Source of the DNA: Baia soyae
GTDB taxonomy: Bacteria; Bacillota; Bacilli; Thermoactinomycetales; Thermoactinomycetaceae
Length of the DNA stretch: 32,000 bases
Assembly: GCF_004341445.1 (NCBI RefSeq)
Contig: NZ_SLXV01000007.1
Location: 24,039 to 56,038, forward strand
Direction of reading: 5' to 3'
The first letter of the stretch is position 1. Every line of letters begins with the position of its first letter. Made by a program: the position numbers and the translations under genes. Positions 2,903 through 29,256 of this stretch are shown here, in pieces. The notes beneath the pieces are model-generated. The model was not told the DNA's origin and did no database searches. It saw nothing but the letters and a program-made list of their open reading frames with translations.

Positions 2903-5485
2903 ATGAAGAAACCAAAGCTATTAACTACTATGAAGAAGGGCAAGACAAGGACCCTAGAAGCACCTGTTACTCTTCCGCCTAACTCCGAACGTTTCCCTAA
3001 AAGAAAAGATCGGAGCCATTCGCGTTCTAAAGTTATAAAGAAACATGATGGTGGAAGCCGCAGTAAACATAAATGGAAAAAGATTTTGAATTGGAAGGTC
3101 ATGCTAGCTGTAGTATGCCTTCCTGTTTTATGTGGTTCGATTTACCTTGCGTATCTTGTTTCTAAAGTACCTGATAATGCAAACGCGGAACTTCAAAAGC
3201 CAGACTCCCCCTCTACACTAGTAGATCGAAAAGATAACATCATAACGAAAATTGGTGCACAGAAGATTGAACCTATCAAACTAGATGAGCTTATGAAGGT
3301 GAATCCTAAACTGCCTGCTGCCTTAGTAAAAGTAGAAGATCAACGCTTCTGGAAGCATGATGGAGTCGATTTCTGGGGTCTTACTCGGGCCGTCTTCGAT
3401 AACTTGCAAGGCCGTTCGGGGGGTGGAGGAACCATTCCCATGCAGGTCTCCCGGAACATGGTATTAGACTCGAAACAAAAAACCTTACAACGGAAGGTAA
3501 ATGAAATCGCATCAGCCCGAAAGTTAATAAAGACGCATAAGCATGAAGGGGTGTTAGAAGCATATCTAAACTATATTGACTTTGGCCCGACCATCCAAGG
3601 GGTACAAGCGGCTTCGAAATTCTACTTTGGTAAAGATTTAACCAAGACTCCATTAACAGACGAAGAGGTTGCTTTGCTTGTGGCTATTCCAAACAATCCT
3701 ACTCGACTTAATCCGAAGGGAAACGAAGAACAGAAGGTAAATGCCAAGGAGCGCCGTGATTGGGTTCTGAAGAAAAAGATGACTAGTAGCGAGGATACAC
3801 CAGCGGTCATCTCGATGGAAGATGCGGATAAGGCTATTACAAAACCTCTTCAAGTTGCGAAAGACGAGCAAAATACATTCCTAAATGAATTTAAGCTAAA
3901 GAGCCATGCAGCTTATATTGATTTAGTGCGGACTGAATTAAAAGAACGATATGGAATTTCGAAAGAAGACTTACGTACCAAAGCGTATCAGATTAAAATT
4001 GCGATTGATCCCGAGATAGATAAAACGATAGAAAATGAGACAAAGAACACTACTGGAGGAGACTCTAAGACAGGGAAAAATAATGATTTAAATAGTAGCT
4101 TTACTGTACTGGAACGTAAAACAGGGCTCGTTCTCGCTTTATCTGGTGGGAAGGATTACATATCGGGAGGTCTGAATTGGGGAGTTACAAAACAACAGCC
4201 TGGCTCCGCGATTACGCCACTTGTTGTTTATAGCCCTTATGTGGAACTACATAAAGATGAAAAACCGGACCAAAATGAATATTCTCCTTTAGGGAACGTT
4301 ACTCTTTCCCAAGCATTAGCTACTTCGTCTGGTTATGTAGCAACTAAGCTTTTCGTAGATGAAGTAAAAGTAGATCGAGGAGTTAAGTTCTTGCAAGATA
4401 AATTCCAGTTGCCTCTTGAAAAGAAAGATTTGGAATCACCGGATGCCATTGCGATCGGTGATGTAACCAAAGGCTTCTCCCCCATACAGATGGCTCAAGC
4501 TTATTCCACATTTCCTAATAACGGAAAATTTATAAAAACATACACTGTTCTAGAGGTGAAAGATAACAAACAAAATAAAATAGAACCATTGCCTAATCAG
4601 GAGATGGAAACAAATCAGAGTGGCGATCAAGCATTTTCTGCTAAAACTGCATACTATATGACACGAATGTTGAAAGAAGCAGTAGAAAGTCCTAAGGGAG
4701 ATGATAAGGGAGCGAAAATACCAGAATTTGATGTAGCTGGTATAACAGGAACCACTCAGAATAAGAGATCAGGTTGGTTTGTAGGTTTTACACCCGATTA
4801 TGTAGCATCTGCTGTAGTCTTTAATGAATATAAAGATGGGAAACAGGGCGATACAAAAGTTAGCGGTGACTCAGTAGCTGAAATGTGGGGTAAGGTCATG
4901 AAGAAAGTGGTGAAAAGTAGTGATACACGCCGCTTTGAAAAACCGTCTGGTGTCCCAGAACCGGTTCCTCCACCACGGTTAGAAAATTTTGATATCACTA
5001 TCTCAACAGAAGGAGAGAGTAAAGATATCAAGATCAACATTATCGGTGGTTCTCGTGACCCTAATGTCACTTATAGAGTAGAAAGATTGGATTCAAAAGG
5101 TCAATACGTACTGGTCACAGAAGGGACAGCAGACTCGCTAAAAGATACATTTGCACCTGTGGATTCAAACACTCCAAACCAGAAGTTTACTTATAAGATT
5201 ATTGCTAAATCAAAAGATAAATCCATTCTCCCAGCAGTCGTAGAGAAAGAGTTGACTCTTCAAAAATCGAAAGTACAATCGTCCGACAAACAGCAGAAAC
5301 AACCAGATAGTCCACCAAATCCTAAGCCAAGCAAGCCAGATAATGATCAAAGTAAACCAGAACCTAATCCAAGTAAACCAGATAAAGAACCAGACTTAGG
5401 AGATCAAAATCAAGGAAAACCGGAGCCAGAAAACAAACGTCCAGAAGGGACAAAAGAGATAAGGCCTACAAACCCGACAAATTAG
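2903..5485 (+). CDS. Class A penicillin-binding protein homologue: GT51 glycosyltransferase domain plus a degenerate transpeptidase-like domain and a Pro/Lys-rich C-terminal tail
   Basis: A basic cytoplasmic N-terminus is followed by one TM segment (VMLAVVCLPVLCGSIYLAYLV). GT51 motifs: EDQRFWKHDGVD, GGGTIPMQVSRN, RKVNEIA, VLEAYLNYIDFG, RRDWVL. The transpeptidase framework is present (QQPGSAITPLVVYSPY, AGITGTTQNKRSGWFVGFTPDY). The start at 2903 is uncertain because the SD AAGGGG lies 11 nt upstream. Confidence 0.88.
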   Translation: MKKPKLLTTMKKGKTRTLEAPVTLPPNSERFPKRKDRSHSRSKVIKKHDGGSRSKHKWKKILNWKVMLAVVCLPVLCGSIYLAYLVSKVPDNANAELQKPDSPSTLVDRKDNIITKIGAQKIEPIKLDELMKVNPKLPAALVKVEDQRFWKHDGVDFWGLTRAVFDNLQGRSGGGGTIPMQVSRNMVLDSKQKTLQRKVNEIASARKLIKTHKHEGVLEAYLNYIDFGPTIQGVQAASKFYFGKDLTKTPLTDEEVALLVAIPNNPTRLNPKGNEEQKVNAKERRDWVLKKKMTSSEDTPAVISMEDADKAITKPLQVAKDEQNTFLNEFKLKSHAAYIDLVRTELKERYGISKEDLRTKAYQIKIAIDPEIDKTIENETKNTTGGDSKTGKNNDLNSSFTVLERKTGLVLALSGGKDYISGGLNWGVTKQQPGSAITPLVVYSPYVELHKDEKPDQNEYSPLGNVTLSQALATSSGYVATKLFVDEVKVDRGVKFLQDKFQLPLEKKDLESPDAIAIGDVTKGFSPIQMAQAYSTFPNNGKFIKTYTVLEVKDNKQNKIEPLPNQEMETNQSGDQAFSAKTAYYMTRMLKEAVESPKGDDKGAKIPEFDVAGITGTTQNKRSGWFVGFTPDYVASAVVFNEYKDGKQGDTKVSGDSVAEMWGKVMKKVVKSSDTRRFEKPSGVPEPVPPPRLENFDITISTEGESKDIKINIIGGSRDPNVTYRVERLDSKGQYVLVTEGTADSLKDTFAPVDSNTPNQKFTYKIIAKSKDKSILPAVVEKELTLQKSKVQSSDKQQKQPDSPPNPKPSKPDNDQSKPEPNPSKPDKEPDLGDQNQGKPEPENKRPEGTKEIRPTNPTN

Positions 5486-6277: not shown

Positions 6278-6991
6278 TTACTTTTTCTCAGCTAGTAGTT
6301 CGGAGACCGTCTTAAATGTGTAACCTTGCTTCCGCAAAGACTCTACGACTCCTTTTATCGATTTCAGGGATTCCTCCCTGTTCTTATACATAACATGCAG
6401 AAGGATAATCGATCCTGGCTTTACATTCTCTTTTACATGTTGAACTATTTTATCTGAATTTGAACCGATATCTGCATAGGAATCTGGTTCGATATCCCAC
6501 ATAATCGTTTTCCGGTTATGTTGGCTTAGATAGTAAGGTAGCAAGATCAGCTTTTTTCCATTTGGAGGTCTAAATAGGATCTCTTCTTGGTAACCTGCAT
6601 CTCGAATGAGTTGATCTGTTTTCTCAATTTCATTCTTAATAAAACTAGGGGACTTTAATACCATTCGAGTGTGTGAGTATGAATGATTGCCTAATTCATG
6701 ACCCGCTTGAACAATCTTTTTCCCTTCCTCTGGGTGTTGTTGTAACTCTGCTCCCGTCACAAAAAAAGTAGCTTTCACATCGGCCTCTTTGAGTACTTTT
6801 AATACTTCGTCGGTCTGCTCGGTCGGTCCATCGTCTAAGGTAAGGGCGATCACTTTCTGATTGGTATCAACCCGATCTGTTAGATCTCCAAATAGTTGGT
6901 AAGTTCTAGACTTAGAAAGCTGAAAGAGTGCATACATGATGATCAACAAAACAGCAAGGGTGAGCGTAACTCGAGTCGTCCATTTCTTCAT
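6278..6991 (-). CDS. Membrane-anchored polysaccharide deacetylase (NodB homology domain)
   Basis: NodB motifs: TLDDGP, HSYSH, FRPPNGK, IILLHV. It has an N-terminal TM anchor. I prefer the start at the second ATG (6991, MKKW...), because the first ATG-GAG-GAC supplies GGAGG 5 nt upstream of it. Confidence 0.88.
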   Translation of the reverse strand: MKKWTTRVTLTLAVLLIIMYALFQLSKSRTYQLFGDLTDRVDTNQKVIALTLDDGPTEQTDEVLKVLKEADVKATFFVTGAELQQHPEEGKKIVQAGHELGNHSYSHTRMVLKSPSFIKNEIEKTDQLIRDAGYQEEILFRPPNGKKLILLPYYLSQHNRKTIMWDIEPDSYADIGSNSDKIVQHVKENVKPGSIILLHVMYKNREESLKSIKGVVESLRKQGYTFKTVSELLAEKK

Positions 6992-19985: not shown

Positions 19986-21095
19986 TTATACAACCGCTTC
20001 TTCGGTTTCTTTATCGAAAATATAAACTTGATCCATCTTCACTGATAGTGTCAACTGAGAACCCAAACGATATTCAGACGGCGACTTCACACGAGCTGTC
20101 ATGCCACCCCGGCCCACACCTTTCAGGTAAAGGGTCATCTCGGAGCCTGTATGTTCCATCATCTCAATCTCTGCCTTAAAGGTGTTCGGTCGGCTTGGTG
20201 ACTCCGGTTCATCCTGAAGCGCCTCGGGACGAAATCCTAAGATGATGCTTTTTCCAATGTATCCTTTTTCTCGAAGGCTACTTGCCTTTTCAGCTGGGAT
20301 TTTCCATCTCGCACCTTCTGCTATGAAGAAGAGTAAACCATCCTCTTCGGAAAGAATTCCATCTAGTACATTCATCGTTGGGGAACCCATAAATCGTGCT
20401 ACAAATAGGTTAGCAGGATGGTGATATAGTTCGTTTGGTATAGCAACTTGTTGAATGACCCCATCCTTCATCACCACAACGCGATCACCCATCGTCATCG
20501 CCTCTGTTTGATCGTGAGTCACATAGATCGTCGTGGTTCCTAATCGTTGATGTAACTTTCGAATTTCTGTTCGCATATGTACTCGTAGCGTTGCATCCAG
20601 ATTAGAAAGAGGCTCGTCCAGCAAAAACAGCTCTGGCTCACGTACCATAGCACGACCAAGAGCCACCCGTTGATGCTGCCCGCCTGAGAGTGTCTTCGGC
20701 CTCTGATCTAGATAAGATTCCATATCTAACATCTGCGCCGCATGACGCACTCGCTGATCGATCTCTTTTTCATCCATTTTCTTCATTTTTAAACCAAATG
20801 CTATATTTTCATACACCGTCATATGTGGATAGAGGGCATGGTTTTGAAACACCATTGCGATATTACGGTCTTTAGGCTCTACATGATTCATGGTGCGATC
20901 ATCAATGGATACAGTTCCATCCGAAATCTCTTCTAATCCAGCTATCATACGAAGAGTCGTCGACTTCCCACAGCCAGATGGACCTACTATTACGAGAAAC
21001 TCCTTATCATGAATCTCGAGATGAAAATCTTGAATCGTTGGTTTATTATCTGAAGGATATTGTTTATAAATATGTTCAAGAACTACCTTGGCCAT
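19986..21095 (-). CDS. msmX: MsmX/MalK-type sugar ABC transporter ATP-binding protein
   Basis: GPSGCGKST, LSGGQ, LLDEPLSNLD, and a C-terminal MalK-like regulatory domain. No permease or binding-protein gene is adjacent. Confidence 0.88.
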   Translation of the reverse strand: MAKVVLEHIYKQYPSDNKPTIQDFHLEIHDKEFLVIVGPSGCGKSTTLRMIAGLEEISDGTVSIDDRTMNHVEPKDRNIAMVFQNHALYPHMTVYENIAFGLKMKKMDEKEIDQRVRHAAQMLDMESYLDQRPKTLSGGQHQRVALGRAMVREPELFLLDEPLSNLDATLRVHMRTEIRKLHQRLGTTTIYVTHDQTEAMTMGDRVVVMKDGVIQQVAIPNELYHHPANLFVARFMGSPTMNVLDGILSEEDGLLFFIAEGARWKIPAEKASSLREKGYIGKSIILGFRPEALQDEPESPSRPNTFKAEIEMMEHTGSEMTLYLKGVGRGGMTARVKSPSEYRLGSQLTLSVKMDQVYIFDKETEEAVV

Positions 21096-21156
21096 GTGGT
21101 CCGCAAACCCCTTTTCGCTTTTGTAGTACGCTTCTATTCTACTCTACCTTGACCAT

Positions 21157-21198
21157 AAAAAAAATAACGCAGATGAGCACCTAACGGGCAACATCTGC
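21157..21198 (-). terminator. Terminator overlapping the 3' end of the PucR-like gene
   Basis: GCAGATG (21169-21175) pairs with CATCTGC (21192-21198). The plus-strand A-run at 21157-21164 is a T-run on the minus strand. Confidence 0.6.
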
Positions 21199-21978
21199 TT
21201 TTCGACGGAGGATGAACTGCATAAGCTTCACCATCATCGCATCATCAAAAACACGTAAATCATAGCCAATCTCTTCGCGAATCTTTTCTAGGCGATAAAG
21301 TAACGTATTTCGATGAATATATAATTTACGAGCCGTCTCACTCACATTTAGATCTTCTTCCAGAAAGCACTGGATCGTCTTCATCATCTCTCCATCACTC
21401 CATAAAGGAGTTGTCGGGATCACAGCGCAAACTTGGTCTAGTTGATGCACTTGAAGACTATGAATGAGTTCATATAAAAAAGTGTTCCATGTCGTGACAA
21501 TGGCTTGATCCGGATCGATCTTATATGACATTTTCTCTGCTCTTTTCATTCGATCCATCTCTTCAAACAGCGCTTCAGACGATACTACCTTTTCACCCAC
21601 AATGATTCGTGCTTCTCCGCCTAACTCAGTTCGCACCCTTTCTAAAAAACCTCGCGCCTTTGAAAGCAACTCATTCCGCTGCGCCGTACGATCCCTCTGA
21701 TCCAATTCACGATCTGGCTGCATCACAAGCCACTGTTCATAAGCAACTTCTACGAGAAGTAAATCTAGATCTACAAAATAGCTTTGTAGAAACTTCTCCC
21801 AATCCACTTCCATCTGCTCTCCGTGGATAGGTGCATCTACTTGAACATAGAACAAACACCATTTCTCTATTTTCTTAAAGAAATCGTGAGAAAGAGAGTT
21901 CCGAACTCCTTGTTGCCAAAACAGGACGACGCTATCTGAGTTAGAACAAGTTTGGGTTAATTCTTGAGATTTAGTCAT
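21181..21978 (-). CDS. PucR/CdaR-family transcriptional regulator (C-terminal HTH)
   Basis: C-terminal VSETARKLYIHRNTLLYRLEKIREEIG is the PucR-type HTH. It is divergent from the first surface-protein gene. Confidence 0.8.
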   Translation of the reverse strand: MTKSQELTQTCSNSDSVVLFWQQGVRNSLSHDFFKKIEKWCLFYVQVDAPIHGEQMEVDWEKFLQSYFVDLDLLLVEVAYEQWLVMQPDRELDQRDRTAQRNELLSKARGFLERVRTELGGEARIIVGEKVVSSEALFEEMDRMKRAEKMSYKIDPDQAIVTTWNTFLYELIHSLQVHQLDQVCAVIPTTPLWSDGEMMKTIQCFLEEDLNVSETARKLYIHRNTLLYRLEKIREEIGYDLRVFDDAMMVKLMQFILRRKADVAR

Positions 21979-22208
21979 TTATTATATAGAGAGCGTCTCA
22001 TGTTTCTGCTAGATACACTCGCTCTCTCTCCCCTTCCTCTCACATTCCACTATCAAAATAGCCTACCATTTTTCAACACCATTCTCATATCTATTCACTC
22101 ATACCAATACCGCAAAACATATGGGAAATCCTGCTACATTATCCTATCATCTTGCAATAAAAAATCGCAGTCTATTACAGACCCTATCTTAACTTTTTAT
22201 CATATTAA

Positions 22209-22277
22209 TATGAACAAAATGTGAAATTACCAAAACCACATCAAATCAGGACACAAAAACCAAGTTTATTTCGATAT
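22209..22277 (+). promoter_or_regulatory. Conserved upstream module of paralog 1
   Basis: TATGAA-caaaa-TGTGAA (22209-22225). GACAC (22250-22254), 17 nt, CGATAT (22272-22277). Then AGGAGATGACCATTC-ATG. Confidence 0.55.
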
Positions 22278-22325
22278 AGAGTATGAAAGAAATAATTATT
22301 TCTAGTTAATAGGAGATGACCATTC

Positions 22326-23435
22326 ATGGTACGTATGACGAAACCGTTCGCAGTACTTGCGACACTAGCACTTTCCGTAACCGCTTTCCAAGGCGTTGTA
22401 GCGGCTCACGATGAAACAAAACCAACTACTAACCCAACCGCTACTACTGAGCAAAAACCGGCTGATAAAAAAGTAGAAGGTAACGCTGATACTAAAGTCG
22501 AGGATAAAAAAATAGAAAGCAAAATCGATGCTAAAGTTGAAGATAAAAAAGCAACTGAAGGCAAAACAACTACTCCTGCCGCTGAAAAAGGCAAGGTAGC
22601 TGATAAAAAAGAAGTAAAGAAAGTGGAAATCGGGGTAACTGAAACCGGATCAGTTCTAAAAGCGGAACTTAAGGGCACTAAAGAAGCAAAAGGTACCTGG
22701 AAGTTCTTTATTGGCAATAAAGAGGTCTTCTCTACACAAGGTGGAGCTTCTTTTGAATTTGACTTCTCAAATCCAGACCTCGCAAAGAAATTCATTGAAG
22801 CGAGTGCTGAAGCGAGTGCTGGATATGCTGTAATCCAATTTGAAGGAACTTCTAATGGAACTCCTATCAAAGGACAAGTTAGAAATGATTTGGCTAATGA
22901 ACTTACTACAACAGCAACAGTAAAAAATAGTACTCTCACTGTGACTGGTAAACTCAATGGCGCTAAAAAAGCAAAAGGTACTTGGGTTGCTATAGTAAAT
23001 ACCAATATTCAGTTCTTTAAAAACGGAGAGCCTAATGAAACCATTGTTGATCACGAAATGATTGAAAACGGTGGCCTCTCAAGTAAATTTGCCTTCAAAG
23101 ATCTAAAACCTGGTACTTACTTTGTACTTGTAGCTTTTGAAGGTACTGTTGACGGCAAAGATACAGATACTTATGACGTTATGAAAGTTGTAGTAAAAAA
23201 AGCAGGTAAAGCTGATTCGGGTAAGGATTCTGTAGAAGTTACTCCAGTTAAAAAGCCTGTTACAAAAGAAGCGACCAAGCAAGAAACGAAAAAAGCCATT
23301 GAAGATGCAAAAGGTGGTAAGTTACCAAAAACCTCTACTAGCTACCCAATCGCGACTGTTGCGGGTGCAGCTGTTCTGATGGTGGGAGCAGGTCTCTTCT
23401 TCGTAGCTCGTCGTCGCAAACAAAAACAACAATAA
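22326..23435 (+). CDS. Sortase-anchored surface protein, paralog 1 (two-module form)
   Basis: Signal peptide MVRMTKPFAVLATLALSVTAFQGVVAA. K/E/D-rich stalk. Two modules carrying the AKGTW ... FEGT signature. LPKTS (23322-23336), then a hydrophobic span and RRRKQKQQ. Confidence 0.9.
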   Translation: MVRMTKPFAVLATLALSVTAFQGVVAAHDETKPTTNPTATTEQKPADKKVEGNADTKVEDKKIESKIDAKVEDKKATEGKTTTPAAEKGKVADKKEVKKVEIGVTETGSVLKAELKGTKEAKGTWKFFIGNKEVFSTQGGASFEFDFSNPDLAKKFIEASAEASAGYAVIQFEGTSNGTPIKGQVRNDLANELTTTATVKNSTLTVTGKLNGAKKAKGTWVAIVNTNIQFFKNGEPNETIVDHEMIENGGLSSKFAFKDLKPGTYFVLVAFEGTVDGKDTDTYDVMKVVVKKAGKADSGKDSVEVTPVKKPVTKEATKQETKKAIEDAKGGKLPKTSTSYPIATVAGAAVLMVGAGLFFVARRRKQKQQ

Positions 23436-23451
23436 TCTTTTTTAAGTAGAA

Positions 23452-23480
23452 AGCATACCTAACGTGGGTATGCTTTTTTA
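23452..23480 (+). terminator. Terminator of paralog 1
   Basis: AGCATACC (23452-23459) pairs with GGTATGCT (23467-23474), then TTTTTT. Confidence 0.75.
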
Positions 23481-23486
23481 TTTGAA

Positions 23487-23556
23487 TGTGAATAAACAAT
23501 GAATTCTATTTAAATTAATTGATTTTAGACACTAAAAAATAAGATGATTTCGATAT
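23487..23556 (+). promoter_or_regulatory. Conserved upstream module of paralog 2
   Basis: TGTGAA-taaac-AATGAA (23487-23503). GACAC (23528-23532), 18 nt, CGATAT (23551-23556). Confidence 0.5.
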
Positions 23557-23603
23557 ATATTGTGTAAGCCTATTATTTGAAAGTACATAGGAGATGACCA
23601 TTC

Positions 23604-24677
23604 ATGAAACGTATGACAAAACCATTCGCAGTACTTGCGACACTAGCCCTTTCTGTAACTGCTTTTCAAGGCGTTGTAGCAGCGAACGAAACAAAGCCTG
23701 CTAATCCAACTGCTCCGGTCTCCACCGAGCAAAAGCCAGTCGATAAAAAAGTGGAAGGCACAATGGACTCTAAAGTCACAGACAACAAAAAGGATGGGAA
23801 AGCTACCAACACAACTCCTCCTCCAGCTAATGAAAAAAATAACAAACCAGCTAAAAACAAAGCACAAAAAGAAGTAGAAATCGACCTTACAGATACAGAA
23901 AAGGGTATCAAAGCTCAATTGAAAGGGGTAAAGGAAGCAAAAGGGACTTGGACATTGCTTGTTGGTGGTCAAGTAATCATCTCTGCACAAGGTGGAGCTT
24001 CTCACGAATTCGACCTCACTGATCCGAAAGTGGAAGCAAAACTAGCGGCTATCGACGAGCTCGCATGTTTGGAAGTTCAATTTGAAGGGACGACTACCGG
24101 AACTCCTGTAAAAGGGAACGGAAAGGATGAATCACCAGCTGATATTCCGGTTATCTCTGTCAAAACAGAAGTAAAAGATAGCACTCTTACTCTCAACACA
24201 AAAATCAAAGATGCAAAAGAAGCCAAAGGTCAATGGGTTGCTGTGGTAAGCAAAACTCGTGAGTTCAACAATAACGACCTCGTTGGTCATAAAAAAGAAG
24301 AGGGCGGGGCTTCTAAAACATTTACCTTTAAAGATTTGAAGCCAGGCACTTACTTTGTACTCCTTACCTTTAAAGGTACTGTGGATGGTAAAGAGAAAGA
24401 AACATGTACCGTTGTCAAAGTGGATGTCCCTAAGGGCGGAACACCTAGTACTGGTACCGGTACTGGCACCAATCCCTCTACTCCTGTAGAGCCTAAACCA
24501 GTTAGTAAGCCTGTTACAAAAGAACAAGCGAAAAAAGCGGTTGAAAAGGCAGAAGGTGGCCAGCTACCAAAAACGGCTACCAGCTATCCAATCGCTACCG
24601 TGGCGGGTGCGGCTATTCTAATGATAGGTGCAGGACTCTTCTTCGTAGCTCGTCGTCGTAAGCAAAAACAACAGTAG
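23604..24677 (+). CDS. Sortase-anchored surface protein, paralog 2 (two-module form)
   Basis: Same signal peptide (MKRMTKPFAVLATLALSVTAFQGVVAA). Two modules (KEAKGTW..., AKEAKGQW...FKDLKPGTYFVLLTFKGTVDGK). LPKTATSYPIATVAGAAILMIGAGLFFVARRRKQKQQ. Confidence 0.9.
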   Translation: MKRMTKPFAVLATLALSVTAFQGVVAANETKPANPTAPVSTEQKPVDKKVEGTMDSKVTDNKKDGKATNTTPPPANEKNNKPAKNKAQKEVEIDLTDTEKGIKAQLKGVKEAKGTWTLLVGGQVIISAQGGASHEFDLTDPKVEAKLAAIDELACLEVQFEGTTTGTPVKGNGKDESPADIPVISVKTEVKDSTLTLNTKIKDAKEAKGQWVAVVSKTREFNNNDLVGHKKEEGGASKTFTFKDLKPGTYFVLLTFKGTVDGKEKETCTVVKVDVPKGGTPSTGTGTGTNPSTPVEPKPVSKPVTKEQAKKAVEKAEGGQLPKTATSYPIATVAGAAILMIGAGLFFVARRRKQKQQ

Positions 24678-24690
24678 TACTTGATAAAAA

Positions 24691-24718
24691 AGCATGCCTA
24701 AGTCAGGTGTGCTTTTTC
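24691..24718 (+). terminator. Terminator of paralog 2
   Basis: AGCATGCCT pairs with AGGTGTGCT (with G-U pairs), then TTTTT. It is homologous to the terminators of paralogs 1 and 3. Confidence 0.65.
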
Positions 24719-24781
24719 TTTCACTAGACAATCGATATAAAAATACATAACATAGAAAAAAACCACATAGAAAATGAGGGA

Positions 24782-25417
24782 GTGGTCATAATTCGAATAT
24801 TATCTTGGTTATTAATCATAGCAGGAACTGTCGTTTTGGGATGGAACGCATATAATTGGTGGAGTGAAAGTGCTTCTTCCGTGCCCTATGAAGAGGCTAC
24901 CATGAGCAAGATTGATAAAAAAGGAGACGATACTTCTCCACAACCAGCTCTTGCGAAAGGAATTCCATCCGATCTCAAACATAATAGGGGAGATATGATC
25001 GCTACTCTAAGCATTCACCGTTTAAAAAAGAATCTTGAAGTTGTGTATGGTGCAGACGCCGATTCACTTGAAAAAGGCGTGGGGAGCTATATAGAAGATA
25101 ACGATCCTCAGACTAAAGATAAGACTGTAAAACCAGGTGAAACCGGACATGTTGTTCTATCTGGTCATCGTGATACCAAGTTCAAAGGGATGGGCGAACT
25201 AAAAGTCGGAGACCGATTAATTATTGACTACAACAATCACTACTTTATCTATCAGGTACGAAAGACGTGGGTAACACCCAAAGAAGACCGAAAGGTTATC
25301 GTCACAAAAGATAAACCAATCCTTACCTTAGTTACTTGTTATCCATTTAATATGCTAGGCAGTGCACCTAAACGATATATTATCGAATCTGAGTTAATCG
25401 AGATTCAAAATAAATAA
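24782..25417 (+). CDS. Sortase, YhcS/SrtD-like (class D type)
   Basis: N-terminal TM segment. Motifs GADADSLEKGVGSY, VLSGHRD (His), TLVTCYP (Cys), APKRYIIES (Arg). No C-terminal TM. GTG start with the SD unusually close. Confidence 0.88.
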   Translation: MVIIRILSWLLIIAGTVVLGWNAYNWWSESASSVPYEEATMSKIDKKGDDTSPQPALAKGIPSDLKHNRGDMIATLSIHRLKKNLEVVYGADADSLEKGVGSYIEDNDPQTKDKTVKPGETGHVVLSGHRDTKFKGMGELKVGDRLIIDYNNHYFIYQVRKTWVTPKEDRKVIVTKDKPILTLVTCYPFNMLGSAPKRYIIESELIEIQNK

Positions 25418-25448
25418 CAAAAGAGATTTCCTGCACTCCGTTGATATG

Positions 25449-25506
25449 CTCCCTAAAAGGTAGACAGTTGAAATAATAAAAACTGTTACCGAAGGGGAGT
25501 TTTTTC
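25449..25506 (+). terminator. Terminator of the sortase gene
   Basis: Composite hairpin: CTCCC/GGGAG (25449-53 / 25495-99), GGTA/TACC and ACAGTT/AACTGT, followed by TTTTTT. Confidence 0.7.
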
Positions 25507-25568
25507 ATGAGAAAAGGAATCCTTTTTTATAATATGGGACGCATTTATGTAATAAATTGGTCCATTAA

Positions 25569-25638
25569 TGTGAACAAAATGTGAAATTAACTAAAATGAC
25601 TCATTTTATGACACAAAAAAAGAAAAGTGTTTCGATAT
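25569..25638 (+). promoter_or_regulatory. Conserved upstream module of paralog 3 (best-formed copy)
   Basis: TGTGAA-caaaa-TGTGAA (25569-25585). TAAAAT (25592-25597). Palindrome AAAATGACTCATTTT (25593-25607). GACAC (25610-25614), 18 nt, CGATAT (25633-25638). Confidence 0.55.
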
Positions 25639-25687
25639 AAACTATGTAGAACTCATTTTATACATAATTCTTAGGAGATGACCATTC

Positions 25688-26623
25688 ATGGCACGTATGA
25701 CGAAACCGTTCGCAGTACTTGCGACACTAGCCCTTTCTGTTACCGCTTTTCAAGGCGTTGTAGCAGCAGAAGAAACAAAACCAGCCCCTACCACCCCACC
25801 TACTGAGCAAAAAACAACAGCTCCTGAAACCAAAGTAGAAGTGAAAGTGGAAGATAAAAAAGGTACAGAAGCTGATAAAAAAGCGGAAGTTAAACCAGAA
25901 GACAAAAAAGCAACCGAAACTGGTAATAAAACAGATGAAAAAACAGGTGACAAAGCGGACGGCAAAACAGATGGGAAGACGGATGGTAAAACAGGTGAAA
26001 CACCTAATACCAATCCTTCAACACCTGGAACAAATAAACCAGCTGATAAAAAAGAAGACGAAGAAGAAGCTAAAGGACCTTACCTATATGCAGAAGCTTC
26101 ATTGAAAAATGGGACTCTTACCATAACCGCTACCATTAAAAATGCAAAACATATTAAAGGTCTTTGGTATGCAGACGGATTCAAATCAGGTACAGAAAAG
26201 CGCGTATTTACAGATGAAATACAGAGTAAAAATGGTTTCTCTCAAACCTTTACCTTTAAAAATGTAAAGCCTGGTGTCTATAATTTGAATGTAGGCTTTA
26301 TCGGAACAGTTGACGAGTTCCAGGCAGATGAAAGAAACTCCGTTCTACTAGAAATCGATACGAGAAAAGGCGGAGCTACAAAGCCAGCTAAGAAAGAAAC
26401 TGCTGTTAAAAAAGCACCAGCCAAGAAAGAAGCTACTACAGAAAAAACCACCACTGATAAAAAAGAAACCCAAAAAGCAAAAGCTACAACAGATAGCAAA
26501 GGTGGTAACCTACCAAAAACCGCTACTAGCTACCCAATCGCTACCGCTGCGGGCGCGGCTGTCTTGATGGCAGGAGCAGGTCTATTCTTCATAGCACGTC
26601 GTCGTAAGCAAAACCAATCATAA
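25688..26623 (+). CDS. Sortase-anchored surface protein, paralog 3 (one-module form)
   Basis: Same signal peptide. Long K/E/D/T-rich stalk with DGKT x3. One module (LKNGTLTITATIKNAKHIKGLW ... FTFKNVKPGVYNLNVGFIGTVD). LPKTATSYPIATAAGAAVLMAGAGLFFIARRRKQNQS. Confidence 0.9.
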   Translation: MARMTKPFAVLATLALSVTAFQGVVAAEETKPAPTTPPTEQKTTAPETKVEVKVEDKKGTEADKKAEVKPEDKKATETGNKTDEKTGDKADGKTDGKTDGKTGETPNTNPSTPGTNKPADKKEDEEEAKGPYLYAEASLKNGTLTITATIKNAKHIKGLWYADGFKSGTEKRVFTDEIQSKNGFSQTFTFKNVKPGVYNLNVGFIGTVDEFQADERNSVLLEIDTRKGGATKPAKKETAVKKAPAKKEATTEKTTTDKKETQKAKATTDSKGGNLPKTATSYPIATAAGAAVLMAGAGLFFIARRRKQNQS

Positions 26624-26637
26624 TATGAGATATGAAA

Positions 26638-26664
26638 GCATGCCTATACTAGGTGTGCTTTTTC
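26638..26664 (+). terminator. Terminator of paralog 3
   Basis: AGCATGCCTA pairs with TAGGTGTGCT, then TTTTT. Confidence 0.65.
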
Positions 26665-26755
26665 TTACACTCGACACGTAAAGAAAAATGAATTAAACCG
26701 GCATTTTCTTATATCAAACCAAAGAATTCCGGTTTTAATAAAGTTGTCATTCTTT

Positions 26756-26825
26756 ATTGAACGAACTGTGAAAGGAGCTAAAATGGCTCATTTTGAGACA
26801 CAAAAAAAGAGAGTCCATCCGATAT
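26756..26825 (+). promoter_or_regulatory. Conserved upstream module of paralog 4
   Basis: ATTGAA-cgaac-TGTGAA (26756-26772). TAAAAT (26779-26784). AAAATGgctCATTTT (26780-26794). GACAC (26797-26801), 18 nt, CGATAT (26820-26825). Confidence 0.55.
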
Positions 26826-26880
26826 TAAATATGAGTAACGAAAAAACAAACGATTAATAACTAACTGGAGATGACTATTC

Positions 26881-27822
26881 ATGAAACGTATGACGAAACC
26901 ATTCGCAGTACTTGCGACACTAGCACTTTCTGTTACTGCTTTTCAAGGCGTTGTAGCAGCCGCTGAACCTCAAGTTAATCCTACACCGACTACCTCTACT
27001 ACAGAGCAAAAAGCAACTCCTGAAACCAAGATTGATACAAAAGTAAACGACAAAACCAGTGAAAAAATGGACAGTAAAACAACTGACAAAAAAGAGAACC
27101 AAAATGACGGTAAAACCGCTGACAAAAAGGATGAACCAAAAGGGGATAAAGCGGATGGGAAGACAGGTGGACAACCTAACACCAACCCTCCAGCCGCTGG
27201 AACAAATAAGCCAGCTGACAAGAACGAAACAGTCAAAGAGCCGAAATTCCAAACATCCGCTGTAGTGAAAAATGGCACTCTTACTGTAACTGAAACCATT
27301 AAAAATGCAAAACATGCTAAAGGAGATTGGTACGTAATCGTATCAAAAGACTCTGAGCCAGATTGGAGCAAAGCAACACACAAGACTTCGAAAATGAACC
27401 GCAGTGGACTTACCCAGACATTCACATTTAAAAATGTAAAGCCGGGTCATTACAATGTGTTTGTTGGCTTCGTTGGAACGGTTGATGGTATAACCGGAGA
27501 AGGCTACTCTGAAGTGGCAATTGAAGTGAAAGGCGGAGCTGTCAAACAAGTTAAGAAGCAAACTAAGACACAAACTAAAAAACAAGCTACTGTAAAAAAA
27601 TCTACAACTAAAACAAAAGTAAAAAGCACCACTACTAAAAAAGCAACGACTAAAGCTCCTACCAACGAAAAAACAACAAAACCAACTGTAAACGGCCAAG
27701 GGGGTAAATTACCGAAAACCGCGACTAGCTATCCAATCGCTACCGTCGCGGGGGCGGCTGTTCTAATGGCGGGGGCGGGTCTCTTCCTCGTAGCGCGTCG
27801 TCGTAAGCAAAATCAATCTTAG
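26881..27822 (+). CDS. Sortase-anchored surface protein, paralog 4 (one-module form)
   Basis: Same signal peptide. One module (VKNGTLTVTETIKNAKHAKGDW ... FTFKNVKPGHYNVFVGFVGTVDG). A K/T-rich linker. LPKTATSYPIATVAGAAVLMAGAGLFLVARRRKQNQS. Confidence 0.9.
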   Translation: MKRMTKPFAVLATLALSVTAFQGVVAAAEPQVNPTPTTSTTEQKATPETKIDTKVNDKTSEKMDSKTTDKKENQNDGKTADKKDEPKGDKADGKTGGQPNTNPPAAGTNKPADKNETVKEPKFQTSAVVKNGTLTVTETIKNAKHAKGDWYVIVSKDSEPDWSKATHKTSKMNRSGLTQTFTFKNVKPGHYNVFVGFVGTVDGITGEGYSEVAIEVKGGAVKQVKKQTKTQTKKQATVKKSTTKTKVKSTTTKKATTKAPTNEKTTKPTVNGQGGKLPKTATSYPIATVAGAAVLMAGAGLFLVARRRKQNQS

Positions 27823-27831
27823 TCACAAAAC

Positions 27832-27874
27832 AAAACAGGAGTCCTCGCTCAAAGCGGGAGTCCTGTTTTGTTTT
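27832..27874. terminator. Bidirectional terminator between paralog 4 and yvlD
   Basis: AACAGGA (27834-27840) pairs with TCCTGTT (27861-27867), with an inner TCGC/GCGG helix. A-rich run to the left and TTTTGTTTT to the right. Confidence 0.7.
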
Positions 27875-28209
27875 CAATCTAATATAAGGCCAATGACCCA
27901 AGAAGTTACACTGATAATCAACGATGCTATTACAGCAGAGATAAAGTTTTGAATCTCAAATCCATCAACTAAAAATGCAGTTACGTATAACATCCCTACA
28001 TTAATTAGTAAGGTAAACAAACCTAATGTTAAGATTTGAATTGGTAACGATAAAAATGAGATAATGGGACGAATGAAGATATTAGCCAGTCCCAAAACAA
28101 TCGCTACCACTAATGCCGTTCCAGCTCCGCTGACGCTAATACCAGGCACATAGTGGGCGATGAGAAAGATCACAACGGCATTTAACACAAGCCTGAAAAT
28201 CCAAGTCAT
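27874..28209 (-). CDS. yvlD: YvlD-like small membrane protein (4-TM, phage holin family IV-like)
   Basis: 111 aa, four hydrophobic spans. The sequence pattern NAVVIFLIAHYVPGI ... LVDGFEI matches what I recall for YvlD/PF04020-type proteins. Confidence 0.7.
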   Translation of the reverse strand: MTWIFRLVLNAVVIFLIAHYVPGISVSGAGTALVVAIVLGLANIFIRPIISFLSLPIQILTLGLFTLLINVGMLYVTAFLVDGFEIQNFISAVIASLIISVTSWVIGLILD

Positions 28210-28356
28210 AATACATACCCCATTTCATAGTGCTTGTATAGTTTTAAGGAAAAAGCAGACTCTATATAGAAGTACACTTCTTCTTTTTCCTACTTTTATG
28301 TTACTCTCTAATAATAAATGTTTCCATACATGAAATCGATTATGAGGTGAACGATT

Positions 28357-29256
28357 ATGCAATTAGGAATGATTGGTCTTGGTAAGATGGGTTACAACTT
28401 AGTACGAAATATGTTAAGTCATCGTCATGAAGTAGTTGCTTACGATGTATCGCCAGAGCCTGCAAAGGAGTTAGCAAACTATGGTGCAGTCCCTGCTACT
28501 ACGATTGAAGAACTCGTAAGCAAACTACACAAACCACGCACCGTTTGGATGATGGTTCCTGCTGGTAAGATCGTGGATCAAGTGATTGATCAAGTAATTC
28601 CTCATCTAGAACCAGGTGATATCGTCATCGATGGTGGTAACTCTCACTACAAAGACACCTTAGCACGGGGAGAACGGCTTCAAGCAAAAGGGATTCACTA
28701 CATGGATGCAGGTACCTCCGGGGGCACCTCTGGCGCTCTAGAGGGCGGCTGTTTCATGATTGGAGGCTCTCCAGAAGCATGGGATCATGTAAAAGACATG
28801 TTCCACGATTTATCGGTTGAGAAAGGGTACTTATATACCGGAAAAGTAGGTAGCGGTCACTTCCTCAAAATGATACATAACGGAATTGAGTACGGCATGA
28901 TGCAAGCCATTGCAGAAGGCTTTGAAATCCTAGACAAAAGCCAATTTGATTATAACTTTGAAGAAGTATCACGAGTATGGGCCAATGGTTCCGTCATACG
29001 TGGATGGCTGATGGATCTCATGGAAAACGCCTTCTCCAAAGATCCAAAACTAGACCAAATTCGCGGCGTAATGAACGCTTCCGGTGAAGGGCAATGGACA
29101 GTGGAAACCGCCCTTGACCTAAAAGCAAACGCCCCTGTCATTGCCCTATCCATGTTCATGCGCTTTCGCTCCCTTGAAGACGATACCTTCCACGGAAAAG
29201 TAGTCGCCGCCCTTCGCAACGAATTCGGTGGTCACGCAGTAGTCCGCAAGGAATAG
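28357..29256 (+). CDS. Short-form 6-phosphogluconate dehydrogenase (decarboxylating)-like NAD(P) oxidoreductase
   Basis: Rossmann N-terminus MIGLGKMGYNLVRNM. Motifs GGNSHYKDT, DAGTSGG, GSGHFLKMIHNGIEYGMMQ. About 300 aa, like the YqeC/Gnd short form. Confidence 0.85.
   Translation: MQLGMIGLGKMGYNLVRNMLSHRHEVVAYDVSPEPAKELANYGAVPATTIEELVSKLHKPRTVWMMVPAGKIVDQVIDQVIPHLEPGDIVIDGGNSHYKDTLARGERLQAKGIHYMDAGTSGGTSGALEGGCFMIGGSPEAWDHVKDMFHDLSVEKGYLYTGKVGSGHFLKMIHNGIEYGMMQAIAEGFEILDKSQFDYNFEEVSRVWANGSVIRGWLMDLMENAFSKDPKLDQIRGVMNASGEGQWTVETALDLKANAPVIALSMFMRFRSLEDDTFHGKVVAALRNEFGGHAVVRKE

Follow-up and report, generated by a model that had tools for sequence, protein, structure and literature searches.

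A class D sortase gene and four paralogous cassettes for putative wall-anchored proteins with an undescribed immunoglobulin-like module in Baia soyae

The stretch of DNA analysed here, referred to as the window, comprises 32,000 nucleotides of Baia soyae, a soil-dwelling member of the Thermoactinomycetaceae in the order Bacillales (contig NZ_SLXV01000007.1, positions 24,039 to 56,038), and carries a sortase gene surrounded by four paralogous genes for putative surface proteins, designated P1 to P4. All five genes lie on the + strand: P1 at 22326-23435 (369 amino acids), P2 at 23604-24677 (357 amino acids), the sortase between P2 and P3 at 24782-25417 (211 amino acids, GTG start), P3 at 25688-26623 (311 amino acids) and P4 at 26881-27822 (313 amino acids). 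Coordinates and strand agree exactly with those given for the five open reading frames (ORFs) in an earlier note on this DNA, which described the group as a dedicated sortase with a private set of substrates. P2 was found to match a Baia soyae database protein (P0003) residue for residue, and the sortase is identical to a protein from a Logan assembly; P1, P3 and P4 were not returned by the protein-database searches.

Both ends of the four paralogs are nearly invariant, and the identities rule out chance as the source of this likeness, to which the earlier note had already drawn attention. The four proteins agree at every position over the 25 residues from 3 to 27 (RMTKPFAVLATLALSVTAFQGVVAA), the last ~38 residues (GGxLPKT[AS]TSYPIAT[VA]AGAA..LM.GAGLF..ARRRKQ) are 82-89% identical, and the central regions are 43-46% identical. 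The sorting signals, encoded on the + strand at 23322-23432 in P1 and from 24564, 26510 and 27709 in P2, P3 and P4, respectively, read LPKTSTS in P1 and LPKTATS in the other three. The C-termini, that of P1 included, pass the anchor models PF00746 (~31 bits, cut-off 20) and TIGR01167 (24-26 bits, cut-off 15.9), and Ala or Ser after Thr suits substrates of class D sortases, as had been proposed (PMC8225981, PMC3617157). The paralogs do not belong to the processed acidic surface proteins (acidic_w_LPXTA, TIGR04383), with 20-21 bits against a cut-off of 50 over the C-terminal ~45 residues only and with mature proteins that are basic. Besides P1-P4, no ORF with a sortase-type C-terminal signal was found in the window.

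The signal peptide is as constant between genomes as within the array: of 13 paralogs from four genomes, 11 share it identically and the remaining two show one or two substitutions. The idea that recent gene conversion alone produced this identity was rejected, since third codon positions differ by 16-32% and the peptide is invariant across genera. The pattern speaks for strong purifying selection acting on the targeting sequences, and the 5' cassette has probably undergone some concerted evolution as well, because third-position identity at codons for identical residues of the Baia paralogs is 0.77 in the signal region versus 0.54 in the modules.

As judged from its sequence, the enzyme is an ordinary class D sortase. 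It reaches 195.6 bits on the NCBIfam model NF058671 ("class D sortase, LPxTATN-specific"; cut-off 140), models for classes E, C and F yield 88.5, 63.3 and 24.4 bits, all far under their cut-offs, and the sortase family PF04203 is matched with an E value of 6.5e-23. Its best relative in the PDB is 2LN7, the class D SrtC of Bacillus anthracis (E 6.4e-40), with a runner-up about thirty orders of magnitude weaker; the earlier assignment to class D, close to YhcS and SrtC, was thus correct, and the enzyme is not of class A. Alignment with 2LN7 places the catalytic motifs at His ~130 (LSGHRD), Cys ~186 (TLVTCYP) and Arg ~198 (KRYII), and the hydrophobic residues ~3-22 (IIRILSWLLIIAGTVVLGW) would serve as an N-terminal membrane anchor in a type II topology. 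Among 661 homologues, those with an NCBI name belong to Thermoactinomycetaceae and Bacillaceae, and most of them bear the label "class D sortase"; orthologues in four genomes are 85-92% identical. The GTG start lies directly against a GAGGGAG Shine-Dalgarno sequence, and the true start codon is uncertain.

Between their conserved ends, the paralogs follow a common layout consisting of the signal peptide, a linker of 70-100 residues rich in Lys, Glu, Thr and Asp, one or two copies of a module of ~100 residues, a second linker rich in Lys, Thr and Pro, and finally GG-x-LPKT(A/S)TS, the hydrophobic span and the RRRKQ tail. On the + strand, P1 encodes the signal peptide (residues 1-27), a disordered K/E/T linker (residues 28-98), module A (22620-22901), module B (22902-23207) and the C-terminal linker. 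P2 likewise has two modules, A at 23871-24143 and B at 24144-24440, and single modules occur in P3 (26075-26374), behind a long disordered N-terminal linker with three DGKT repeats, and in P4 (27238-27537). BLASTP detects homology between modules A and B of P1 (E 4e-5). After processing, the proteins would be hydrophilic (grand average of hydropathy, GRAVY, -0.7 to -1.2) and basic (isoelectric point 8.9-9.8), with ~15% Lys and ~13% Thr, and Cys is absent from two of them.

AlphaFold2 predicted module B as a seven-strand β-sandwich with a predicted local distance difference test score (pLDDT) of 94.4. In the full-length model, residues 1-93 (signal peptide and N-terminal linker) and 294-321 have pLDDT values below 50, and a helix is inserted into module A at residues 150-162. 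The module is not covered by any Pfam or NCBIfam model, and Foldseek comparison with the PDB and a viral structure set retrieved only generic immunoglobulin (Ig)-like and fibronectin type III-like sandwiches (best E 0.013, template modelling (TM) score ~0.5; none below E 0.001), so that no confident match to a characterised adhesin or S-layer family emerged. Membership in Big_3_5 failed, with no match in the window paralogs and 29.4 bits for the best relative against a gathering threshold of 35.5. Nevertheless, sub-threshold matches to Big_3_5 (PF16640; seven) and Filamin (PF00630; three) among 59 family members indicate, together with the predicted fold, that the module is a divergent Ig-like domain. 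The statement in the earlier note that the central regions could not be placed in any named domain family therefore holds for profile models but not for the fold, which is confidently modelled as an Ig-like β-sandwich and finds weak Big_3_5 matches in 7 of 59 relatives. The conserved module positions (G, W, Y, F, G) are core and turn residues.

Several paralogous proteins with Ig-like modules around a sortase have the superficial look of a pilus island, in which the paralogs would be the pilin subunits of a sortase-assembled pilus or fibre. We regard this as hardly credible. The sortase belongs to class D and obtains 63 bits on the class C model with its cut-off of 160, no paralog contains a [WYF]PK[NGDSA] (YPKN-type) pilin motif or an E-box, the genes are monocistronic, and distant relatives have the sortase alone. 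Membership among chaplin- or BslA-type proteins failed as well, as the mature proteins are not hydrophobic. Sortase class, hydrophilicity and missing pilin motifs thus led to rejection of the pilus and hydrophobin readings.

Each paralog has its own promoter-like module and its own terminator, as the motif count and hairpins with folding free energies (dG) of -12 to -25 kcal/mol confirm. An alignment of the regions upstream of ten paralogs, drawn from three genera, revealed an invariant TGTGAA-type direct repeat, GACACAAAAA, 18 nt further on T(T/C)CGATAT, and an invariant ribosome-binding site, GGAGATGA. In front of P1 this cassette spans 22204-22277, with the TGTGAA-type repeat followed by GACACAAAAA-N-CGATAT at 22250-22277; the corresponding GACAC-N-CGATAT motifs lie at 23528-23556 for P2, 25610-25638 for P3 and 26797-26825 for P4, all on the + strand. 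The pattern GACA-N18-20-CGATAT occurs exactly four times on both strands of the 32-kb window, once 5' of each paralog, and once per substrate gene in related loci. A scan with the σ70 consensus found no convincing σA promoter 5' of the paralogs. A σD/σ28 reading of the CGATAT element was rejected on account of a TAAA -35 at the wrong spacing. In two more distant loci, from a Thermoactinomyces sp. (L003, ~6870-6900) and Staphylospora marina (L004, ~6880-6915), TGACACAAAA-N13-CGAATA precedes the sortase gene itself and is near-identical to the paralog element (TGACACAAAA...CGATAT). These sequences suggest a shared alternative promoter, of a type resembling those of extracytoplasmic function (ECF) sigma factors, for a family-wide sortase regulon; here and below, sigma-factor assignments are tentative. 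The exact GACAC...CGATAT motif was absent 5' of the dispersed family members in Staphylospora and Desmospora, where only looser GACA...TCGAA resemblances were seen.

Hairpins followed by T-runs, computed with ViennaRNA, close the genes on the + strand at 23449-23477 behind P1 (dG -15.3 kcal/mol), 24689-24715 behind P2 (-12.5), 26636-26660 behind P3 (-12.4) and 27831-27870 behind P4 (-24.8), and thus define separate transcription units. The P2 terminator stands directly 5' of the sortase leader and is kept in three genera. The P4 terminator is probably bidirectional, since it lies between P4 and a convergent YvlD-like gene. The hairpins of P1, P2 and P3 are similar (AAAGCAT[AG]CCTA...GG[GT][TG]ATGCTTTT), a likeness that fits the duplication of whole promoter-gene-terminator cassettes.

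Behind the P2 terminator, the sortase leader (24716-24781) differs from the paralog leaders and is conserved in three genera. It holds TAGACAATCGATAT, which resembles the paralog promoter with a collapsed spacer, and AC-N16-CATAACATA, the only AC-N16/17-CATAnnnTA match in the window. An Rfam scan of 21000-28500 (E <=1) returned two chance-level matches and no known RNA element in the leaders. The AC-N16-CATAnnnTA arrangement resembles a σK-type mother-cell promoter, and we treat it as a weak lead. Thermoactinomycetaceae form endospores, and sortase and substrates could accordingly act in endospore formation, decorating the peptidoglycan of the forespore or spore rather than that of vegetative hyphae. 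This would concern timing and location, and the same anchoring chemistry could operate. The σK-like match, alone in the window and largely kept in three genera, speaks in its favour, but it is short, degenerate, set within a generally conserved region and absent 5' of the sortase in L003 and L004, and the paralog motif GACAC...CGATAT is not known to match a sporulation sigma consensus. In Bacillus, a connection between class D sortases and sporulation has been described (PMC8225981), and SrtC of B. anthracis is the nearest relative with a solved structure. The YhcS substrates of B. subtilis, however, are not spore proteins. On balance, a sporulation role appears possible but unlikely.

To establish the reach of the module, 1.84 billion cluster representatives were searched exhaustively with a HMMER profile, which recovered 67 clusters at E <=1e-3 and 25 at E <=1e-10, with one to five modules each. 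A word-indexed homologue search had found three relatives only, and the same kind of search with a 33-sequence module alignment gave no match at E <=0.001. Twenty representatives were looked up; 13 had a named organism and all 13 belong to the Thermoactinomycetaceae, in the genera Shimazuella, Desmospora, Polycladomyces, Seinonella, Melghirimyces, Staphylospora, Salinithrix, Marininema, Paludifilum and Mechercharimyces, with annotations reading just "hypothetical" or "LPXTG anchor". A candidate relative outside the family, from an Oscillospiraceae metagenome-assembled genome (L010), was discarded: the protein is of the LPETG pilin type, is accompanied by a sortase resembling class C and does not match the module profile. 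In this wider family, signal peptides vary between genera, and paralogs inside one genome again share their termini.

Near the C-terminus, 61 of 68 module proteins carry [LMIV]PxT, followed by Ala in 50, Ser in eight and Gly in three; the X residue is Lys in 43, and Thr stands at +2 in 45. With Ala or Ser after Thr in 58 of these 61 signals, the module is, on sequence grounds, tightly coupled to a class D-type sorting signal. Some relatives bear functional heads in front of the modules: P0171 combines a YkuD L,D-transpeptidase and an SH3 domain with two modules and an LPKTAS anchor, and P0178 has a TapA-like domain (TIGR04087, 85 bits, cut-off 80), one module and an MPKTS anchor. These architectures suggest that the module may act as a scaffold for display close to the wall. 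Anchoring of a TapA-like protein by a sortase would be unusual.

This distribution bears on the idea of a morphogenetic coat on the hyphae, which would be the Firmicute equivalent of the Streptomyces class E sortase/chaplin system and would condition substrate or aerial mycelium at its surface. Such a role would explain the restriction of the module to the mycelial Thermoactinomycetaceae, from which every named family member comes, and in actinomycetes morphogenesis is driven by hydrophobic proteins that depend on sortases (PMC13251363, PMC8225981). BslA and TapA also appear among the generic β-sandwich fold matches, and the TapA-like fusion described above joins such a domain to the module. 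However, the mature proteins differ from chaplins and BslA in being strongly hydrophilic and basic, the fold matches lack specificity (BslA itself: TM 0.54, E 0.023), and lineage restriction by itself counts for little. We therefore judge a hyphal coat of this kind to be improbable.

Comparison of the chromosomal slot between genomes showed how the array may have arisen. Croceifilum oryzae has two substrate genes, the sortase and two further substrate genes, and Thermoactinomyces sp. DSM 45891 and DSM 45892 each have one substrate gene on either side of the sortase. In Thermoactinomyces sp. L003 and S. marina L004 the slot holds the sortase only, with no adjoining substrate gene, and in Hazenella (L005) one apparently frameshifted substrate gene precedes the sortase. 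This Hazenella coriacea gene (L005:6171-6985) extends over two frames, a module-A-like fragment followed by VRGNG...LPHTATT, and is either a frameshifted pseudogene or the product of a sequencing error. Sortase and substrates are thus syntenic in four close genomes, and adjacency in Hazenella brings the number to five. Since the same slot in distant relatives contains the sortase with no substrate or one, the sortase is taken from this gene-order evidence to be ancestral there, and the array to be a local expansion in the Baia/Croceifilum clade. The modules are 58-73% identical as against 85-92% for the sortase orthologues, indicating that the passengers evolve faster than the enzyme.

Module proteins also occur elsewhere in the genomes, so substrates are not obliged to adjoin the sortase. 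In Thermoactinomyces sp. DSM 45891, a further P2-like paralog lies on a different contig, surrounded by unrelated genes, and S. marina (CP034118) encodes a tandem pair with one and three modules (L011:1741-4191) ~160 kb from its sortase. The last 35 residues of this pair are identical (GGKLPKTATTHPTGAAAGLALLIGGLALLKLRRTA), and within-genome homogenisation of sorting signals appears from these sequences to be a property of the whole family. The sortase should therefore not be regarded as a dedicated enzyme with a strictly private substrate set: L003 and L004 lack an adjacent substrate, L005 has one, and family members are found at other sites in Staphylospora and DSM 45891. Beside the off-locus paralog of DSM 45891 lies, on the - strand, a gene for a 539-residue secreted or membrane protein (L009:3854-5473), followed by a 175-residue ORF (3343-3870), a layout that recalls a polymorphic toxin-immunity pair.

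The occurrence of the sortase without adjacent substrates in other genera, together with signals that fall slightly under the cut-off of the LPxTATN model, would agree with sorting signals that are left unprocessed, P1-P4 remaining in the membrane as C-terminally anchored type I proteins and the sortase serving other substrates. Conservation makes this very improbable: 67 diverged clusters retain (L/M)PxTA(T), always in the canonical place (GG-LPKTAT, hydrophobic span, basic tail), which argues for selection for sortase recognition, and the adjacency of sortase and substrate recurs in five genomes.

Taken together, these data are best accounted for by a class D sortase locus of the LPxTA/LPxTATN type, in which an ancestral sortase gene is flanked by four duplicated substrate cassettes whose products are anchored to the wall; we assign this reading a probability of roughly 0.8. 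Each paralog would be transcribed alone from the conserved non-σA promoter (GACAC-N18-CGATAT) up to its own terminator, exported through the Sec pathway and freed of its invariant signal peptide by a cut at ...GVVA|A. The hydrophobic span and RRRKQ tail at the C-terminus would then retain it in the membrane until the sortase Cys cuts LPKT|A(S)TS between Thr and Ala or Ser, and resolution of the acyl-enzyme by the diaminopimelate (DAP) amine of a peptidoglycan precursor would attach the protein covalently to the wall. The mature protein would consist of a flexible C-terminal linker spanning the wall, one or two Ig-like modules, and a long, disordered N-terminal tail, rich in Lys, Glu and Thr, that faces outward. 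By their composition and distribution, mature P1-P4 could form a lineage-specific surface coat or adhesin layer; this biological role, like the cleavage site, the DAP linkage and the identity of the sigma factor, is what we infer.

Several points weigh against this account. The LPxTATN signal model NF058670 gives the paralogs 26.2, 30.7, 30.1 and 28.5 bits, below its cut-off of 32, and the Baia signals end in TATS, not in the TATN of the model; the orthologue of P3 in DSM 45891 carries the exact LPKTATN. On the generic class D model NF033746, the sortase remains at 157.4 bits, below the cut-off of 165. Cleavage and anchoring in this lineage are extrapolated from the class D paradigm, and a search of one literature library turned up no report of sortases in Thermoactinomycetaceae. 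No conserved surface or catalytic residues were detected in the modules, nor any sign of catalysis or of a ligand site, and P1-P4 may be either adhesins or pure spacers, as the conservation fits both. Finally, the Baia data are those of the 32-kb window, and other sortases, for example of class A, or further substrates may be encoded elsewhere in the genome.

A bolder proposal would make targeting itself part of the function. The module proteins would then constitute a surface organelle specific to the Thermoactinomycetaceae, in which the clade-invariant signal peptide and the shared alternative-sigma promoter, which in distant relatives would drive the sortase itself, form a dedicated programme that places a covalent lysine-rich wall brush at hyphal tips, septa or the sporulating compartment, and so contributes to the biology of the mycelium or of the spore surface in what is, within the Bacillales, the only mycelial family. 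We consider this improbable. If the proteins did shape the hyphal or spore surface, they would offer a first molecular handle on envelope differentiation in a poorly studied mycelial Firmicute family, and LPKTAT-specific pairs of sortase and tag could be of use in protein-display engineering.

Under the preferred reading of a class D locus with duplicated substrate cassettes, the ~67 clusters that at present carry the names "hypothetical" or generic "LPXTG anchor" can be annotated as substrates of class D sortases with a lineage-specific Ig-like module, which deserves a domain model of its own. The locus also offers a natural example of the growth of a sortase regulon, in which an ancestral stand-alone sortase gained duplicated promoter-gene-terminator cassettes whose targeting ends stay homogeneous as the passenger modules diverge.

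The array is located in the core chromosome. On its 5' side lie whiA, prs, lgt, hprK, msmX and a gene for a PucR-type (HTH_30) regulator at 21181-21978 on the - strand (PF13556, E 6.7e-19), and on its 3' side the YvlD-like gene convergent to P4, gnd and uvrA. ORF inspection and domain scans of the window found no transposase, integrase or other mobile-element gene around the array, which, like the divergent orientation of the regulator, agrees with the earlier note. The regulator gene is found beside the sortase in L001-L004, even where no substrate is adjacent, and is absent in L005. Because it persists beside the sortase without the array, it is not tied to the paralogs; any control of the array by it is putative, and we treat it as context rather than as part of the paralog array. 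The regulator has 265 residues in the clade of Baia, Croceifilum and DSM 45891 as compared with 320-337 in distant relatives (L003:5768-6730 and L004:5206-6219, compared with 21181-21978 of the window); the shortened form occurs in the same clade that has the substrate array.

As regards known systems, the anchoring machinery is textbook, and novelty is confined to the passenger module, an undescribed Ig-like domain which, among named members, occurs only in Thermoactinomycetaceae. The block had been called the least explainable of the window, a description that does not stand for the pairing of sortase and signal, which is covered by the curated models NF058671 and NF058670 and by published systems of LPXTA signals and sortase D. 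The reaction described for class D sortases is a cut behind the Thr of LPxTA-type signals, through which the protein is joined to diaminopimelate cross-bridges (PMC8225981). In B. anthracis, SrtC cleaves the LPNTA signals of BasH and BasI at Thr and links them to DAP (PMC8225981); the Baia enzyme resembles SrtC (2LN7) as its closest solved homologue, in the LPxTA-type signal and in the expected transfer from Thr to DAP. BasH and BasI, however, are unrelated in sequence to P1-P4, which are four clustered paralogs with Ig-like modules and LPKTAT(S) signals, and the SrtC substrates are tied to sporulation, a link that for the Baia proteins is conjectural. YhcS (SrtD) of B. subtilis is likewise a class D sortase encoded beside a substrate and accepts Ser or Ala after Thr, but its substrates YhcR (LPDTS) and YfkN (LPDTA) are large enzymes, a nuclease and a nucleotidase (PMC8225981), in contrast to the small, non-enzymatic β-sandwich and disordered proteins described here. 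The extended LPxTAT(N/S) motif with hydrophobic span and basic tail is shared with sortase D subfamily 4 of B. cellulosilyticus and the NF058671/NF058670 models. In that organism, 23-27 LPXTAT(N/S) proteins occur together with sortase D enzymes (PMC3617157); these substrates are dispersed carbohydrases, whereas in the present family X is almost always Lys and a conserved GG precedes the signal. With the bacterial Ig-like domains (Big_3_5, Filamin and E-set β-sandwiches) the module shares the seven-strand β-sandwich at the level of the fold only, having its own signature (KG-x-W ... KPG-x-Y ... F-x-G-x-VDG) and being confined to one bacterial family. For the proposed surface organelle, the nearest likenesses would be the YSIRK signal peptides of cocci and the class E sortase/chaplin system of Streptomyces.

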